A stretch of DNA of 32,000 nucleotides from an archaeon. Lineage in GTDB: Archaea > Iainarchaeota > Iainarchaeia > Iainarchaeales > CSSED10-239. Made by a program: the position numbers and the translations under genes. The stretch is taken from the NCBI GenBank assembly GCA_035390665.1, contig DAOOUC010000001.1, positions 108,634 through 140,633 on the forward strand. Reading direction: 5' to 3'. Shown one piece after another: positions 12,273 through 31,742 of this stretch (position 1 is its first letter; each line of letters starts with the position of its first letter). The notes under the pieces are model-generated. The model searched no databases and had not been told where the DNA came from. It saw only the letters and a program-made list of their open reading frames with translations.

Positions 12273-13832
12273 ATGTTTTCAATAAACTTAAATCAAAAGA
12301 AAAAGGCCCTTGAACCACTTATTGCAACTATTTTGTTAATAGTTGTTTCTGTAATTTTAGTTACAATTGTTTTAACTTGGGGCAAGAACTTTTCAGTAGA
12401 AGAATTAAATAAAACAAATAATATTATTTACGTAAAATCAGATATAAGTAACTATATACAATATAAAACAAGAAGTAATACAACAAGCGAAAACAACATT
12501 TTAGAAATAAAAAATATACATCCAACAGAAACTGCAACAATTGTCGGATATAAGATATTATCTCCAAATAGTAAATTTAGATTTTTAGACGATTATCAAT
12601 TTAGTCTTGATGAAAATGCTACATTATCTCCCGGTCAATCAATTTTTTTAGGATTAGCCTGTACGCCAGAGCAAACATTTAATGTTGAATTATTAACAAG
12701 TGATAGCAAATATATTTTTATAAAATATAATAGTCTTAATTCTAGTCCAGCAAGTTGTATAAAAGACATGGATTTTGGTTGGCATCACGCATGTGTGGTT
12801 TTAGCAACGGGCAAAGTAAAATGTTGGGGGCGAAATGATAATGGCCAATTAGGAGATGGCACAATAGCTCAAAAAAAAATACCAATAGAGGTCTTAGATA
12901 TAAATTCAGGGGTTGCAATAACCGCCGGAGATTTACACACGTGTGTTGTTTTGAGTTCAGGAGAAATAAAATGTTTTGGAGATAATCCTTATGGTCAATT
13001 AGGTAATCAAAATACAACAGATAGCAACTTTCCAGTAACTGTTTTGGGAATAAATAATGCAATAAAAGTTTCAGGTGGTTGTTGGCACACATGCGCATTA
13101 CTAAATACTGGTGAAATAAACTGTTGGGGGGCAAATACAAATGGCCAATTAGGTAATGGTACAAAGACAAATAGTTTAATACCAGTTTCTGTTATTGATT
13201 CAAATAATGATATTATTACAAACTTTGTAGATGTAAAAGTAGGCTGTACTAATAGTTGTGCATTACTAAATAACGGACAAATAATGTGTTGGGGTAATAA
13301 TCAATATGGGAAGTTAGGAGATGGCACAACAACAGATAAAAATACTGCAACACCCGTTTTAAATGTGGAAAATGCAATGCAAATAAGTATTGGTTCAGAA
13401 TATGGTGGTTGCTTGCGAGAGCACAACGGAACAGTTAAATGTTGGGGGCGAAATAATTTTGGACAAATTGGAGATGGCACAAACACAGATCAGAACACAC
13501 CTACACAAGTTTTACAAATTACAGATGCAATAGATATTGATAGCGGGAATGGTCACAATTGCGCAGTCCTATCCAATAATGAATTAAAATGTTGGGGACA
13601 AAATAGTGCCGGGCAATTGGGGGACGATACATGGGTAAATAAATCTGTACCCACCACCACAGTAAATTTAATTGATTCAAAAGACGTGGTTCTAGGAGAT
13701 GAATTTAGTTGTGTTAAATCAATATATGGTGAATTAAGATGTTTTGGCAGTAATGGTCAAGGGCAGTTAGGTTTAGGAAATACAACTGCCAGTAAAGTTC
13801 CGTTAGATATAAATAATTCTTTTTATGATTGA
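12273..13832 (+). CDS. archaeal type IV pilin-like protein fused to a seven-blade RCC1 beta-propeller
   Basis: N-terminus MFSINLNQKKKALEPLIATILLIVVSVILVTIVLTWGKNF is a class III signal plus pilin helix. Its first ~45 aa closely match the pilins at 27301 and 27805. Residues ~165-519 carry seven repeats of the RCC1 hairpin C(W/F)G-x-N-x-x-GQLG-(D/N)-G-T. Confidence 0.8.
   Translation: MFSINLNQKKKALEPLIATILLIVVSVILVTIVLTWGKNFSVEELNKTNNIIYVKSDISNYIQYKTRSNTTSENNILEIKNIHPTETATIVGYKILSPNSKFRFLDDYQFSLDENATLSPGQSIFLGLACTPEQTFNVELLTSDSKYIFIKYNSLNSSPASCIKDMDFGWHHACVVLATGKVKCWGRNDNGQLGDGTIAQKKIPIEVLDINSGVAITAGDLHTCVVLSSGEIKCFGDNPYGQLGNQNTTDSNFPVTVLGINNAIKVSGGCWHTCALLNTGEINCWGANTNGQLGNGTKTNSLIPVSVIDSNNDIITNFVDVKVGCTNSCALLNNGQIMCWGNNQYGKLGDGTTTDKNTATPVLNVENAMQISIGSEYGGCLREHNGTVKCWGRNNFGQIGDGTNTDQNTPTQVLQITDAIDIDSGNGHNCAVLSNNELKCWGQNSAGQLGDDTWVNKSVPTTTVNLIDSKDVVLGDEFSCVKSIYGELRCFGSNGQGQLGLGNTTASKVPLDINNSFYD
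12765..13829 (+). repeat. seven tandem RCC1-type coding repeats (about 50 aa / 150 nt period)
   Basis: Blade cores: KCWGRNDNGQLGDGT, KCFGDNPYGQLGNQN, NCWGANTNGQLGNGT, MCWGNNQYGKLGDGT, KCWGRNNFGQIGDGT, KCWGQNSAGQLGDDT, RCFGSNGQGQLGLGN. DNA-level similarity is visible, e.g. aaatgttgggggcgaaat at both about 12821 and about 13437. Confidence 0.8.
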
Positions 13833-25025: not shown

Positions 25026-25910
25026 ATGAAAGAAGAACAAAATAAACAAGAAAGCAAGAAAGATGCTTTCGAAGAAAAATTGTATACTTTATTCTTGCCA
25101 TTAACAGAAAAGATAGAAATGAAAGAACTTGAAGAAAAGTTAAGGCAAGCAGATAGTCCAGATGAATTGGATTATTATTTATCTAAGCATTTGTTTTTTG
25201 CTGTATTTGTACCTTTATTATTTTTACTGTGCGGTTCTTTTATATTTATTTTTTTAGATCTGCCACAATATTTACCTAATTTTTTTATTTTTTGTTTTTT
25301 TTCAGTGTTTGCAATAATTATTTATGCAATAATTAATCCTTATCTTCAAGTTGGTTCAAAGACATCCAATATAAAAAATAGTTTGTCTCTTGCAATCTTA
25401 AGTATGTCAAGTATTGCAGAATCTGGTGCACCTCCAGAAACAATGTTTCACACAAGTGCAATAAAATCAGAAACCCCGTATTTAAGTAAAGAATTTGAAA
25501 AATTAAATGGATATTTAGCATTAGGATATTCTTTACCTCAAGCAATAGATCATTTGTGTACAAGCACACCATCTCCAGAATTAAAAAAATTCTTATTAGA
25601 ATTAAAATCCAGTTTAGAATCTGGTGGTTCTTTACCTGAATTTATGAAAAAAAAGGCAGAGCATGCTCAGTTCACTTATAAATTAATGCTTGATGGGATG
25701 AATAAAAGAGCAGAAACTTTTGGAGATATTTATTCTGCAATAGTTATTGCTGGTCCACTATTCCTATTTTCTTCAATTATGCTTTTAGGTATGATTGGGG
25801 GTGGCGGATTTGGAGGAATGAGTATTGAAACTTTGATGGTTATTGGGGTATTTGGGCTTGTTCCATTAATTAATATTTTTTTTATAATAATTTTACAATT
25901 CGTATCATAA
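25026..25910 (+). CDS. type IV filament platform protein, single T2SS-F domain (FlaJ/PilC N-half or TadB-like)
   Basis: 294 aa. TM helices flank a cytoplasmic T2SS-F-type domain: LSLAILSMSSIAESGAPPETMF...YSLPQAIDHLCTSTPSPELKKFLLELKSSLESGGSLPEFMKKKAE. Confidence 0.7.
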   Translation: MKEEQNKQESKKDAFEEKLYTLFLPLTEKIEMKELEEKLRQADSPDELDYYLSKHLFFAVFVPLLFLLCGSFIFIFLDLPQYLPNFFIFCFFSVFAIIIYAIINPYLQVGSKTSNIKNSLSLAILSMSSIAESGAPPETMFHTSAIKSETPYLSKEFEKLNGYLALGYSLPQAIDHLCTSTPSPELKKFLLELKSSLESGGSLPEFMKKKAEHAQFTYKLMLDGMNKRAETFGDIYSAIVIAGPLFLFSSIMLLGMIGGGGFGGMSIETLMVIGVFGLVPLINIFFIIILQFVS

Positions 25911-26738
25911 ATGAAAATAAATCCAAGATTAGCATTTCTGCTAGATTATGCAGCAAAAGGAGCGATTGGTTCACTTATACTTGGAATATTTTTAATTAGA
26001 ACAAAATTGATGATCTTTACAATTTTTCCAGTAATTTTAGCAGTAGGATTAGCATCTATAATTTACACAAAAAAAATAAGGTCATTAGAGACCAACCTTT
26101 TTGTTTTTCTTGATGATCTAAAAGATTTATTGCAAGGTGGAATGAATATAGTTACAGCAATGGAAATTATAGCAGATCATGATTATGGGGCATTAAACGA
26201 ATACACTAAAAGAATTGCTGCACAATTAAAAATAGGTGTTGCATTTGAAGTAGCATTAATTGAAGTTTTTGGAGAAGTAGATAGTCCATTATTTAGTAAA
26301 ATTGCAAATGTAATTGCTGAAACCATGAAATATGGTGGTAATTTAATTAAAATATTTAGTTCTGTTTCAAATTATGTAAAATTAGTTGATGAAATGGGAG
26401 AAGAAAGAAGATCTAAAACATTTTCAACAGTCTTCTCATCCTATTTTATGTTTTTCATTTTTATTGCAATTATTTTAACTATCCAAATTGTTTTCTTACC
26501 AATGTTAACATCTAGTGATTTAAATGCAGTTGGTGGCGGAACCGGTGGTGCATCATTAGGTGATATTAATTTTAATGCATATTTCTTATATCTTTTAATA
26601 ATACAAGCAGGATTTGCAGGTCCAATAATTGGAAAAATTTCGGAAGGAAATGCGATTGCAGGAATTAAACATTCTATTATACTTTTAGTTATTTCAATTC
26701 CATTATATGTTTTAGTTTCATTGTTTTTTGTTAAGTAA
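25911..26738 (+). CDS. type IV filament platform protein, single T2SS-F domain (FlaJ/PilC C-half or TadC-like)
   Basis: 275 aa. LKDLLQGGMNIVTAMEIIADHDYGALNEY...LKIGVAFEVALIEVFGEVDSPLFSKIANVIAETMKYGGNLIKIF plus flanking TM helices. The ATG directly follows the TAA of the upstream half, in the same frame. Confidence 0.7.
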   Translation: MKINPRLAFLLDYAAKGAIGSLILGIFLIRTKLMIFTIFPVILAVGLASIIYTKKIRSLETNLFVFLDDLKDLLQGGMNIVTAMEIIADHDYGALNEYTKRIAAQLKIGVAFEVALIEVFGEVDSPLFSKIANVIAETMKYGGNLIKIFSSVSNYVKLVDEMGEERRSKTFSTVFSSYFMFFIFIAIILTIQIVFLPMLTSSDLNAVGGGTGGASLGDINFNAYFLYLLIIQAGFAGPIIGKISEGNAIAGIKHSIILLVISIPLYVLVSLFFVK

Positions 26739-26752
26739 GTAAATAAGTAATA

Positions 26753-26760
26753 TTTATAAA
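26753..26760 (+). promoter_or_regulatory. candidate TATA box for the pilin gene string
   Basis: TTTATAAA lies about 40 nt upstream of the 26800 ATG, in the only real intergenic gap of the locus. Weak evidence, because the whole genome is AT-rich. Confidence 0.25.
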
Positions 26761-26799
26761 TATATATATAATATTAATAATTAGAATAAAGAGATTAAT

Positions 26800-27276
26800 A
26801 TGTTTAAGATAAATACAAATAAAGGTGTTTCTCCATTAATTGCTACAATTTTACTTGTAGCTGTATCTTTATCTCTTGCAGGAATATTATATTCTTGGGC
26901 ATCTCAAAATGCAGGAGATACAGTAAATAGTGTTACAGAAACATCTAAAAAGTGGGATTATTGTAAAGGTATAACCCTAAATATGGAATATGGGTGTAGA
27001 TACGATTCTACAACCGGAATAAGTTTTATACTTTATGATAATTCAACAGTTGATTTTGATGAAAATATTATAATTAATATTATTGATGCTAATAACAATA
27101 TAGGAACAGCAACAGTTACACCAAATTTTCAAGGGCGTGCAATGGTAATTAATAATACAGTATATTCAGAATCTGAGACCCAGCCTCTAACAGATCTTAC
27201 AGAACCATTACAACTTGTTAAAGTATACATGAATGGGTGTCCAGATAGAACAGCACAGACAAGAAGCTGTGATTAA
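26800..27276 (+). CDS. archaeal type IV pilin-like protein, paralog 1 (Pilin_N / class III signal peptide)
   Basis: MFKINTNKG-VSPLIATILLVAVSLSLAGIL. Four Cys: C-x10-C after the helix and C-P-x8-C next to the C-terminus. Confidence 0.75.
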   Translation: MFKINTNKGVSPLIATILLVAVSLSLAGILYSWASQNAGDTVNSVTETSKKWDYCKGITLNMEYGCRYDSTTGISFILYDNSTVDFDENIIINIIDANNNIGTATVTPNFQGRAMVINNTVYSESETQPLTDLTEPLQLVKVYMNGCPDRTAQTRSCD

Positions 27277-27287
27277 TTTTTATAAAA

Positions 27288-27292
27288 GGAGG
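27288..27292 (+). promoter_or_regulatory. Shine-Dalgarno sequence (GGAGG) for pilin paralog 2
   Basis: AAAGGAGGAAATTAAA-ATG, with 8 nt spacing to the ATG at 27301. Confidence 0.6.
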
Positions 27293-27300
27293 AAATTAAA

Positions 27301-27780
27301 ATGAATAAGAAAGCTTTAGAACCATTAATTGCAACAATACTTTTAATCGTTGTTGCAGTAATTTTGGTAACAATAGTTCTTGCATGGGGTAAGAACTTTT
27401 CAACAGAAGGATTAAATAAAACAAATGATGTTTTAAATGATGATTGTGCTGGCGCACAACTTGCAATTTCAGATTGTGAAATAATGAGTGATGGAAATAT
27501 TACATTTCAATTAAAGAATATAGGTCAAAATTATTCTTTTGTTAGTACAGATACATTTAAGATAATGTTATCTCATAATTCTTTAGGTGCAGAAGCCGAA
27601 AAAACATTAACATATGCTGTAGGATCTTTTCCAGGATTAACACCAGGCCAAACAGTTATTGCAAAAGTAGCACCAGTAACTTCAACTTGGACAGATGATG
27701 CAGGAGACGTTATTAATGTAATGGTAAGATCTGGAACATGTCCACAAGCAAGTGTAACAGTTTCAAATTGTCACAGATAA
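27301..27780 (+). CDS. archaeal type IV pilin-like protein, paralog 2
   Basis: MNKKA-LEPLIATILLIVVAVILVTIVLAWGKNFSTEGLNKTNDV. Cys frame DDC-x9-C ... C-P-x8-C-HR. Confidence 0.8.
   Translation: MNKKALEPLIATILLIVVAVILVTIVLAWGKNFSTEGLNKTNDVLNDDCAGAQLAISDCEIMSDGNITFQLKNIGQNYSFVSTDTFKIMLSHNSLGAEAEKTLTYAVGSFPGLTPGQTVIAKVAPVTSTWTDDAGDVINVMVRSGTCPQASVTVSNCHR
27316..27435 (+). repeat. 120-bp direct repeat, copy A (5' constant module of pilin paralogs 2 and 3)
   Basis: By my alignment, 119 of 120 nt are identical to 27823-27942, with a single C/T difference at the 33rd position. Flanking coding sequence is highly diverged. Confidence 0.85.
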
Positions 27781-27789
27781 ATAATTTTA

Positions 27790-27794
27790 GGAGG
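27790..27794 (+). promoter_or_regulatory. Shine-Dalgarno sequence (GGAGG) for pilin paralog 3
   Basis: TTAGGAGGAGAATAAAAT-ATG, with 10 nt spacing to the ATG at 27805. Confidence 0.6.
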
Positions 27795-27804
27795 AGAATA
27801 AAAT

Positions 27805-28278
27805 ATGTTTAAGAAAAAAGGATTAGAACCATTAATTGCAACAATACTTTTAATTGTTGTTGCAGTAATTTTGGTAACAATAGTTCTTGCATGGGGTAAG
27901 AACTTTTCAACAGAAGGATTAAATAAAACAAATGATGTTTTATCAGATGATTGTTCAGCAGCAACAATAAATGTTTCAAATTGTGATTATAATGCAGCAG
28001 CAGGAACAAATGGAACAATTAGTTTCTTGTTAAAAAATACAAGTAGTACCTACTCTTTTGTTGCAGATGATTTTACTGCAAACTATATAGATGACGTAAA
28101 TTCATTAAATAGTGAAATGAGTTCCGTTTTTACTACAACACCAGGCGCAATAACACCAGGCGCAACAGTAATTGTTGCAGATACAGGTGTAAATATTACA
28201 GACACAACAAGAGTAAAAATGCAAGTAAGATCAAAAACCTGTCCAGGTATAGCTTTTACTGAAGTAACCTGTTCATAA
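27805..28278 (+). CDS. archaeal type IV pilin-like protein, paralog 3
   Basis: MFKKKG-LEPLIATILLIVVAVILVTIVLAWGKNFSTEGLNKTNDV. Cys frame DDC-x9-C ... C-P-x8-C-S. Confidence 0.8.
   Translation: MFKKKGLEPLIATILLIVVAVILVTIVLAWGKNFSTEGLNKTNDVLSDDCSAATINVSNCDYNAAAGTNGTISFLLKNTSSTYSFVADDFTANYIDDVNSLNSEMSSVFTTTPGAITPGATVIVADTGVNITDTTRVKMQVRSKTCPGIAFTEVTCS
27823..27942 (+). repeat. 120-bp direct repeat, copy B
   Basis: See copy A at 27316-27435. Confidence 0.85.
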
Positions 28279-28310
28279 ATGGAAATAAAAAAGAAGAAAA
28301 TTGGATAATT

Positions 28311-28790
28311 ATGACTCTAAGAAAAAAAGCAGTTTCGCCAATAATCGCAACCATTCTTTTAGTAGTGATTGCTCTAATATTAGTTGGAATACTTCTATCT
28401 TGGGGTCAAAATTTTATTCAAAGAAGTACTGCTGATGCAGATAACGCAATTGATAGAAAATGTATTGGCGCAGACATTGAATTTAGTGTGTGTGAATATG
28501 TTAGTACATCAGGATCAGAAGCATTAACTTTAATAATTGTTAATACAGGAAAAATAGATTTTAAAGAAGATACAAATCTATCTTTGACAATTATTGATTC
28601 TGAAAATAATCTATTTGAAGCAACTGATGAAACAAATAATCTTTTAGAAGGCGCTGCTTTTGTTAAAGGTGCATCCACACAAAAAGAAATTGATTTGAGT
28701 GTGTCTTCTACAGACTTAGTCGCACCATTTGATGTAACAATAAGAAGTAGTCAATGTCCGACTTTTTTTAAGAAAACCACTTGTAGATAA
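28311..28790 (+). CDS. archaeal type IV pilin-like protein, paralog 4
   Basis: MTLRKKA-VSPIIATILLVVIALILVGILLSWGQNF. Cys frame C-x9-C ... C-P-x7-C-R. Confidence 0.75.
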   Translation: MTLRKKAVSPIIATILLVVIALILVGILLSWGQNFIQRSTADADNAIDRKCIGADIEFSVCEYVSTSGSEALTLIIVNTGKIDFKEDTNLSLTIIDSENNLFEATDETNNLLEGAAFVKGASTQKEIDLSVSSTDLVAPFDVTIRSSQCPTFFKKTTCR

Positions 28791-30308: not shown

Positions 30309-30698
30309 TCAATATACTCCAATCTCTATATATACATTATGATTGGAATTATTAATATACTTTATGGAATTGGACAGTAGTTTTATTTTTGTGGCATTTT
30401 GACAATTTATTTCTTTCTGTGTTTGATTAATTTTTATATATCCGCAAGTATTAGGGAAAAGAGACACAAAATTTTGTTCTAAAATATTAATATTATCAAT
30501 TTGTAAATGTTGAGAAGTAATCAAAAGATCATTAATTTTTTGTATTTTTATTAAATCTAAGTTATTTTCTTGTTCTTGGCCATTGCTTAAATTAAAAACA
30601 AGAATAAAAAAAGCACAAAATAAAAGAGCAAAAATCCCATCAGCACTAAATATTTGACCTTTAACAAAAACTAATTTCTGCGATTTTAAATTCCCCAT
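30309..30698 (-). CDS. small prepilin-like protein (KGQ-type class III signal candidate)
   Basis: MGNLKSQKLVFVKG-QIFSADGIFALLFCAFFILVF, followed by a ~95-aa soluble part. Last of four such genes in a row. Confidence 0.45.
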   Translation of the reverse strand: MGNLKSQKLVFVKGQIFSADGIFALLFCAFFILVFNLSNGQEQENNLDLIKIQKINDLLITSQHLQIDNINILEQNFVSLFPNTCGYIKINQTQKEINCQNATKIKLLSNSIKYINNSNHNVYIEIGVY

Positions 30699-31062
30699 TA
30701 TGGATTACCCCTCTAGTAAATGTTTTTTTTATATCAGGAGATTGATCATAGATTGTATTATTTCCTATTTTTATTCTGCACACATTTTGTTCTTCCAATT
30801 GTGTAAGGATCTTAGTATTTAACTTTATTTCTAAAATATTTTTGTAGCAAAGGCCTTTTCTATTTAGCGGGGTATATGCAAAGAAATCACAATCAGATAC
30901 AAGTTTTTCAACAAATAGTATTTCTTCTAATTCTTTTATATTTTGTTTTGTATTATCATCTTCTATCTTTATTTCATAGACATTATTGATGATTATAAAT
31001 AAAACAAAAATAGTTATTAATGTAAAAAACAAAAGATCAATAATCATTATTTGTCCTTTCAT
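30661..31062 (-). CDS. small prepilin-like protein (KGQ-type class III signal candidate)
   Basis: MKG-QIMIIDLLFFTLITIFVLFIIINN if started at the ATG at 31062. The track start at 31110 is TTG and adds 16 aa. Confidence 0.5.
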   Translation of the reverse strand: MKGQIMIIDLLFFTLITIFVLFIIINNVYEIKIEDDNTKQNIKELEEILFVEKLVSDCDFFAYTPLNRKGLCYKNILEIKLNTKILTQLEEQNVCRIKIGNNTIYDQSPDIKKTFTRGVIHNGEFKIAEISFC

Positions 31063-31243
31063 TTCTAATCCAATTGTGTTCTTTATAGTTTTGTTTAATA
31101 ATCTCATCAATTTTTTTATTAATAATAGGAGAAATCTCTAATTTTTCTTTAAGAATTAAAGCAACATCAATAAAAGTAGAGATAATTAAAATTGCCCCTA
31201 AAAGGCACAATAGAAATTCAATTGTAATTTGGCCTTTATTCAT
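31037..31243 (-). CDS. small prepilin-like protein with a canonical G(-1)/E(+5) class III signal (DUF361/Epd-like)
   Basis: MNKG-QITIEFLLCLLGAILIISTF gives Q-x-T-x-E-x-x-L after the Gly. About 68 aa. The ATG at 31243 overlaps the upstream stop by 8 nt; the track start at 31249 is TTG. Confidence 0.55.
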   Translation of the reverse strand: MNKGQITIEFLLCLLGAILIISTFIDVALILKEKLEISPIINKKIDEIIKQNYKEHNWIRNERTNNDY

Positions 31244-31742
31244 ATACAATCACTTCTACAGAATAATTCTTAGGGAAAGAAAAAACTGTCTTTGAGCAAT
31301 TGGTTGAAAGTTCAAAAGAAAGTTGTTGTGTCTTTGTTATTCCATTTGTTAACGTATATCTTTTAAGTGTAATATTAGGAGCCGGTTTAAGAACAATAGT
31401 TTTTGATATCTTTAGTAATTCAGAATAGCTAATTTCTTTTCTTTGATTTGTTTTTAGGTCTAGTACAAACCAATTTTCAGTTTCTTGACTTTTTAGATAT
31501 GATGCCAATTTTTGATTAATTGTTTGATTAAGAATAATAGGATCATTACTTCCATATTTTAATTCCATCTTGATGTATTCTTCAAAGTTTATAGTTGCAC
31601 TTTGTTTTTTTGTATCTAGTAATTTTATAGATAGTAAGCTATAGTAGTTTTCTCGTTTATTAGATATTATAATACTAAAGAATAAAGAAACAAACAACAA
31701 GACACACACACTTAAAAATCCTTTTTTATTTTTTGAAAGCAT
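31236..31742 (-). CDS. hypothetical N-terminally anchored protein, possible prepilin-like (first gene of the operon)
   Basis: MLSKNKKG-FLSVCVLLFVSLFFSIIISN, then a 140-aa soluble domain. ATG start at 31742. Confidence 0.4.
   Translation of the reverse strand: MLSKNKKGFLSVCVLLFVSLFFSIIISNKRENYYSLLSIKLLDTKKQSATINFEEYIKMELKYGSNDPIILNQTINQKLASYLKSQETENWFVLDLKTNQRKEISYSELLKISKTIVLKPAPNITLKRYTLTNGITKTQQLSFELSTNCSKTVFSFPKNYSVEVIVYE

Follow-up and report, generated by a model that had tools for sequence, protein, structure and literature searches.

A tandem array of predicted four-cysteine type IV pilins of three classes in a DPANN-type archaeon

We analysed a stretch of 32,000 nucleotides, called the window below, from an archaeal genome of the Iainarchaeales (GenBank assembly GCA_035390665.1; 848 kb, 21 contigs, 28% GC, 86% complete). 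It covers positions 108,634 to 140,633 of contig DAOOUC010000001.1 (G000:C1:108634-140633 in our numbering of genomes and contigs). The window carries a tandem array of four small genes that are best explained as subunits of a type IV pilus-like filament, of three classes, with heads held by two disulfides; we put the probability of this reading as a whole, which is based on sequence comparison and structural models, at about 0.7. Each subunit would be cleaved after its class III signal and would consist of a long N-terminal helix, as its anchor, and a small β-sandwich head. From these data we infer that the disulfides form, how they pair, that the subunits assemble into a filament and that the classes differ in their roles.

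The four proteins and their predicted fold

The array was noticed in a preliminary description of the window, and the four open reading frames given there, with a class III signal and a pilin helix in each, were borne out in position and length:

26800..27276, + strand: class A pilin, 158 aa, Cys 55/66/147/157 (open reading frame list; TIGR02537; tree clade A)
27301..27780, + strand: class B1 pilin, 159 aa, Cys 49/59/147/157, ends ..NCHR, GGAGG upstream (open reading frame list; tree clade B1)
27805..28278, + strand: class B2 pilin, 157 aa, Cys 50/60/146/156, GGAGGAG upstream (open reading frame list; structural model; Foldseek)
28311..28790, + strand: class C pilin, 159 aa, Cys 51/61/149/158, no GGAGG upstream (open reading frame list; TIGR02537; tree clade C)

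Counting of positions in all four proteins confirmed that each has exactly four cysteines (C1 to C4) and no others. The eight peptides that had been quoted around them were also correct, as were the spacings C-x9-10-C and C-P-x7-8-C, the latter 1-2 residues before the stop. Strong GGAGG ribosome-binding sites had been ascribed to the internal genes; this holds for the second and third genes only, since the fourth has none and the first is preceded by an AT-rich, TATA-like region.

All four proteins start with a short basic leader, followed by a cleavage motif such as K-[GA]|[VL]-[SE]-P and by a hydrophobic helix; the class A helix is of its own type (..VAVSLSLAGILYSW..). The NCBIfam model of the archaellin/pilin N-terminal domain (TIGR02537, cut-off 20 bits) was passed by A (31.4 bits) and C (33.2 bits), and B1 and B2 scored just under the cut-off (18.6 and 19.4 bits). 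A family profile compared with the PDB gave matches that cover the N-terminal helix only (8fk7, Iho670, 8rey, Natrinema PilA2). For the heads, neither Pfam nor NCBIfam has a model, and the PDB has no relative in sequence.

Two of the paralogs, A and B2, were modelled with AlphaFold2. The class A model (predicted local distance difference test, pLDDT, 89.4) has a helix at residues 12-56 followed by nine strands, and the B2 model (pLDDT 84.3) a helix at residues 8-46 followed by seven strands. In a Foldseek search the best matches of the B2 model were archaellins, those of Halobacterium salinarum (9eq7, E 3.4e-4, template modelling (TM) score 0.57-0.61) and Methanococcus maripaludis (5z1l, TM 0.55), at a sequence identity of just 10-12%. 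The predicted fold is thus a long N-terminal helix with a β-sandwich head, closest to archaellins.

These structural matches are one reason to consider that the proteins might be archaellins, or else pseudopilins that belong to a machine for secretion or uptake, and not subunits of adhesive pili. In addition, NCBI names some of the homologs 'archaellin/type IV pilin N-terminal domain-containing protein', and the ATPase is not adjacent to the array (no T2SSE ATPase is encoded inside the window), so that the type of machine is not fixed. However, the Pfam model Arch_flagellin (PF01917) found no match in the genome and did match control genomes, and no archaellum accessory genes lie near the array. 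Furthermore, at ~157 aa the window proteins fall short of the archaellin chains that they matched, which have 177-199 residues, and the same stalk occurs in 9 of the 10 long adhesin-type pilins of the genome. Archaellins therefore share with the B2 model the helix-plus-sandwich architecture but differ in sequence, length and gene context, and we regard their identification with the window proteins, or that of pseudopilins, as improbable.

By their sequences, the four genes belong to the class III signal group of archaeal type IV pilins, of which they constitute an undescribed, lineage-specific member; a literature search returned no description of this pilin family or of a four-Cys DPANN pilin. 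Known archaeal type IV pilins include PilA1-6 of Haloferax volcanii, the Epd pilins of M. maripaludis and the Ups and Aap pilins of Sulfolobus. The window proteins resemble such pilins (TIGR02537 / PF07790) in having a basic leader, a cleavage motif, a hydrophobic helix and a β-sandwich head. They are likewise paralogs lying beside platform genes, in a genome that encodes a prepilin peptidase and T2SSE ATPases: the whole genome has five T2SSE ATPases and three Peptidase_A24 prepilin peptidases, and two T2SSF genes adjoin the array. They are unlike them in the four-Cys frame, in the presence of three classes in a fixed order, and in a platform split into two single-domain genes.

The cysteine frame and the pairing of the cysteines

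A profile built from the four pilins found 463 proteins of similar length. The frame C-x8-14-C ... C-x6-12-C at the C-terminus was kept in 117 of the 120 best homologs, and 105 of these 120 had exactly four cysteines. In an alignment of 101 sequences with a mean column identity of only 33%, the invariant columns were the four Cys, one Leu and one Trp; the Cys pattern is therefore not due to chance. The question raised in the preliminary description, whether the frame defines a family in sequence databases, is thus answered positively.

An exhaustive search of 1.84 billion cluster representatives returned 25 clusters at E <= 1e-30, 416 at E <= 1e-10 and 3795 at E <= 1e-3, the weaker matches being mostly through the helix. 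Of the 21 species genomes in one GTDB family 20 carried the strict family, and so did one genome from another GTDB family; with the window's own genome counted, this makes 22 of the 215 genomes of the phylum. Some of the homologous proteins carried the source labels 'Candidatus ainarchaeum sp.' or 'archaeon', and more distant ones Aenigmarchaeota and Diapherotrites; the window organism is therefore of DPANN type.

Eleven of the 120 best homologs had six cysteines through an extra pair near positions 90 and 122. Separately, it was observed that some class B2 members of four related genomes (G002, G003, G006 and G007; loci L016, L017, L020 and L021) have six Cys, with the extra pair near positions 90 and 122, inside the core, which suggests that a third disulfide was gained in some lineages.

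The four cysteines had been proposed to form either two disulfides or a metal site. Pairing was scored by the presence of Cys at the four positions in 229 full-length relatives. The following patterns were found among them:

All four Cys: 179
C1 and C3 only: 25
C2 and C4 only: 5
C1 and C3 plus a differently placed second pair: 15

Presence was discordant in 4 relatives for C1/C3, in 17 for C2/C4 and in 33-48 for every other pairing. The cysteines therefore behave as two units, C1-C3 and C2-C4. Two disulfides would predict such a co-occurrence, whereas a single site with four ligands for a metal could hardly explain it, and it supports the former. In the AlphaFold2 models the helix ends with C1, and C2 falls within the first long strand or at its beginning; C3 comes behind the last strand but one, and C4 is located in the final strand or immediately behind it. 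In the window's four proteins 9-10 residues lie between C1 and C2, and 8-9 between C3 and C4; these similar spacings would fit an arrangement in which the first and last segments of the head run side by side and are stapled at both ends.

The alternative in which the four cysteines hold a single tetrahedral zinc or iron ion accounts for the exactly four invariant Cys with no others, and a further point in its favour is that VKOR and DsbD were not found in the genome. It does not account for the relatives that retain C1 and C3 alone (25) or C2 and C4 alone (5), which point to two independent pairs, nor for other relatives that swap C2/C4 for a different extra pair. In addition, the proteins have no CxxC knuckles, they are predicted exported filament subunits, and the genome encodes a putative DsbA-like exported oxidoreductase. 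We consider a metal site very improbable; of the two options first proposed, disulfides are the better reading and the metal site fits poorly.

The DsbA-like protein is encoded elsewhere in the genome (C8:8447-9799; locus L039 1468-2823, - strand). This 451-aa protein is anchored in the membrane at its N-terminus, carries Thioredoxin_4/DsbA-like domains with a CPYC motif and is a candidate exported disulfide oxidoreductase. Matches to it were found in 19 of the 21 genomes of the GTDB family, in most cases along almost the entire protein.

We propose that two disulfides would staple each head. C1, at the helix end, would be bound to C3, in the C-P motif after the penultimate strand, and C2, in the first strand, to C4, in or just after the last strand, so that both bonds would zip together the first and last segments of the head. 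The C1-C3 bond would be the older one, widespread in related DPANN pilins, and the C2-C4 bond would have been added in this lineage. Further, and more tentatively, adjacent subunits may be joined to each other through one of the two pairs, which would give a covalently cross-linked filament.

Disulfides in archaeal pilins have a precedent. The type IV pilins of Pyrobaculum arsenaticum and P. calidifontis, studied by cryo-electron microscopy, have single intramolecular disulfides; in the P. arsenaticum pilin the Cys80-Cys139 bond ties the C-terminal segment back to the head, and the disulfides of these pilins have been explained as an adaptation to heat (PMC7347861, PMC10334743). The window pilins differ from these in that two pairs are proposed instead of one disulfide each, one of them starting at the very end of the helix, and in that they belong to a low-GC DPANN archaeon.

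Several observations weigh against the reading of the array as two-disulfide pilins. First, Pfam searches with the proteins gave almost nothing: Pilin_N (PF07790, cut-off 25.2 bits) was below cut-off or absent in all four, with C scoring only 18.7 bits. Second, the class A model had no PDB match in Foldseek at E <= 0.001 and gave only generic Ig-like matches (E > 0.03, TM <= 0.39). Third, the 229 relatives in which cysteines were scored are related to one another, so that the counts are not independent events, and the pattern with C2 and C4 only came from only about two lineages. Finally, VKOR and DsbD, either of which would be a possible re-oxidation partner of the DsbA-like protein, were not found in this 86%-complete genome.

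Three classes and their divergence between strains

A tandem array of three to five members was present in every genome with the strict family. In a maximum-likelihood tree of 70 members, three clades track position in the array, class A being first, class B in the middle and class C last (support in the Shimodaira-Hasegawa-like approximate likelihood-ratio test, SH-aLRT: A 98, B 99*, C 91). About 20 species genomes preserve the order A-B-C, behind the two T2SSF genes in the flanks that were read. In the window's genus class B splits into B1 (ending ..CHR) and B2, so that the window reads A, B1, B2, C; the B1+B2 clade had a support of 95* and the B1 sub-clade an SH-aLRT of 93, and further lineage-specific duplications of B2 are seen in the tree. 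The only departure from A-B-C observed was an extra class B gene 5' of class A in two genomes of the genus, at loci L019 (G005) and L023 (G009), which gives the order B-A-B-C.

Class A is single-copy in the arrays that were read and is the most conserved class, with orthologs 51-65% identical within the genus; it heads the array, with an upstream region of its own and a terminator-like sequence where it ends. The stalk of class B resembles that of other pilins of the genome. Ten long, head-bearing modular pilins are encoded on contigs C1, C4, C6, C7, C12, C13 and C16, and over the first 40 mature residues nine of them are closest to class B (47-82% identity, versus 20-35% with class A). The nine include an RCC1-propeller pilin of the window (12273-13832). 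The main subunit of the filament could be either A or B. Since three ancient classes are kept in a fixed order behind a split platform pair, they probably have distinct structural roles, as major and minor or accessory subunits.

The stretch that separates the two Cys pairs had been described as a ~90-aa middle, essentially unalignable between paralogs and free to diversify. It measures 80-87 aa between C2 and C3, and it can be aligned: identity is 35% between the cores of B1 and B2 (tblastn E ~1e-10) and 31% between those of A and C (E 6e-5), and a strand motif I-[ST]-F-x-L-x-N recurs across paralogs. The middle is nevertheless the fast-evolving part of the protein, as had been claimed. Within classes the N-terminal part is 80-100% identical and the core down to 44-70%; within the genus, the pilins are 40-65% identical, compared with 66-83% for the T2SSF genes.

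The ratio of non-synonymous to synonymous substitution rates (dN/dS) was calculated pairwise by the Nei-Gojobori method. Across genera it is unreliable, dS saturating at 0.5-1.2 in this AT-rich genome, and the summary was therefore limited to strain pairs and to ortholog pairs at least 60% identical. In the latter the helix had a median dN/dS of 0.07-0.14, the core one of 0.23-0.33 and the Cys loops one of 0.20-0.26, and no region-level value for helix or core exceeded 0.67. The core thus evolves two to three times faster than the helix. The cores align within each class and their dN/dS is well below 1, contrary to what a diversifying middle had led to expect; at the level of regions, core evolution is fast and under relaxed purifying selection.

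Divergence over a shorter time was examined in two metagenome contigs, L036 and L038, which carry the same locus from near-identical strains:

Flanking genes versus L036: nucleotide identity 98.2-100%, dS 0-0.04
A: nucleotide identity 97.3%, dS about 0.1, dN/dS 0.08
B1: nucleotide identity 97.5%, dS about 0.1, dN/dS 0.03
C: nucleotide identity 96.8%, dS about 0.1, dN/dS 0.20
B2 versus L036/L038: nucleotide identity 88.2%, amino acid identity 82.6%

Compared with L038, some flanking genes were down to 97.3-98.1% nucleotide identity, with a dS of about 0.09. Most flanking genes are 99-100% identical in amino acids between strains, and the pilin array is the most diverged stretch, the B2 core above all (protein identity 70%, dS 0.46, dN 0.158), with a dip in identity to 72-78% at 27984-28175. 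The core of A and the beginning of B1 show smaller dips, and so does the loop behind C2 in class C, which has an indel. In that class C loop (28490-28515, residues ~63-69), a 2-residue indel and substitutions were the only protein differences from L036; the corresponding loop of B2 contains an indel, too.

As dS increases along with dN in the B2 core, the simplest reading of the sequences compared is that homologous recombination brought in diverged alleles, rather than that local positive selection acted alone. Mosaicism was also seen upstream: versus L038, the T2SSF genes have patches of 94-97% identity (25191-25290, 25791-25890 and 26391-26788) in a 99-100% background, a mosaic typical of recombination and reaching beyond the pilin genes.

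A second type of exchange was observed at the 5' end of the class B genes:

27316..27440, + strand: 5' module of B1, nearly identical in DNA to the B2 module at 27820-27944 (alignment)

The first ~70 nt of the B1 module are a recent conversion tract. All 11 synonymous differences between the window and L036 in B1 are inside this 5' helix module. In L036 (6148-6310) the B1 module differs from B2 at several synonymous sites in its first ~85 nt, unlike the nearly identical modules of the window, so the conversion tract differs between strains.

The preliminary description had interpreted the paralogs as an antigenic or ligand-variation repertoire within one genome, the Cys frame clamping a freely diversifying surface; an analogue would be the pilE/pilS system of Neisseria. 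Several of the above results are in the direction of this proposal, namely the two- to threefold faster evolution of the head, the 70% identity of the B2 core between strains whose flanking genes are mostly 99-100% identical, the conversion tract common to B1 and B2, and the repeated duplication of class B in single lineages. However, the paralogs are ancient orthologous classes, in an order conserved in about 20 species genomes, and dN/dS is well below 1 both gene-wide and in the core. In the assembly (86% complete), tblastn and blastn searches with the four cores found no silent, truncated or partial core copies, only the four genes themselves, each of which is complete and has its own start codon. 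Moreover, the only conversion seen affects the conserved 5' module and not the variable core. B2 varies from one strain of the population to another, and not among the copies of a single genome. As first put forward, the repertoire proposal is already largely refuted and has little chance of being correct.

In bacterial type IVa pilins, including PilE of Neisseria with its pilS loci, a conserved helix carries a variable head, and a pair of cysteines (the D-region disulfide) brackets a C-terminal loop. The window pilins are similar in their conserved helix and variable head, in a Cys pair around a C-terminal loop and in the homogenisation of the 5' ends of paralogs by gene conversion. They are different in that the head is not homologous, the genome has no silent cassettes, and alleles are replaced between strains instead of being switched within a genome.

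In the two-disulfide pilin reading of the array, class B, whose stalk is common to the long adhesin-type pilins of the genome, is the one that undergoes duplication and replacement by recombination between strains. A more specific version, which we propose tentatively and hold to be rather unlikely, is a heteropolymeric pilus with an exposed class B subunit that co-existing strains exchange through homologous recombination, as whole-core alleles within an invariant helix and invariant Cys staples. Small-genome DPANN-type archaea are thought to depend on contact with other cells, for which pili are prime candidates. If true, class B swapping would mean population-level escape from pilus-binding viruses, or a change of host specificity in an episymbiotic archaeon.

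The locus provides one lineage with a defined, conserved set of three pilin classes and a testable disulfide map. It also singles out B2 as a class that varies between near-identical strains, and is a reasonable target for structural work and for population genomics of surface variation. Knowledge of how type IV filaments work is unchanged by this locus.

Gene neighbourhood of the array

The archaeal markers of the window include a tRNA-splicing endonuclease (EndA), a Dph5-like gene of the TP_methylase family, Cdc6 and Cdc48. The neighbours of the pilin array are a DRG-type GTPase, the two T2SSF genes, EndA, DUF357 and Dph5. In a relative whose class A pilin is only ~65% identical, synteny extends over a wider region (Cdc48, M50 peptidase, TatD, methyltransferase, GTPase, two T2SSF genes, pilins, EndA, DUF357 and Dph5). 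The elements that adjoin the array, or lie at the end of its first gene, are the following:

25026..25910, + strand: platform protein gene 1, single T2SSF domain, TadB/FlaJ-half-like (Pfam PF00482, E 5.8e-14)
25911..26738, + strand: platform protein gene 2, single T2SSF domain (Pfam PF00482, E 3.7e-17)
26739..26799, + strand: AT-rich intergenic region ahead of the class A pilin, with a TATA-like box (..atttataaatatatatataat..) and no GGAGG (sequence reading)
27254..27271, + strand: hairpin plus T-run resembling a terminator, where the class A gene ends (pattern scan)

Platform gene 1 is directly 5' of the pilin array in the related loci L001, L036 and L038, whose flanks were read, and platform gene 2 is syntenic in L001, L002, L036 and L038. 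The intergenic region 26739-26799 is a putative promoter of the class A pilin, and the hairpin at 27254-27271 a putative terminator; the scan for terminator-like patterns found 5 sites in the region versus 1.3 expected.

Further downstream, on the - strand of the window (30309-31742), four small open reading frames have class III-like leaders of the K-G-Q type, and one of them gave a weak match to the Pfam model Class_IIIsignal (E 1.5e-4). Open reading frames of similar size were found at the matching position in the related loci L001 and L002. These small genes may be a second set of minor pilins that serve the machine of the array.

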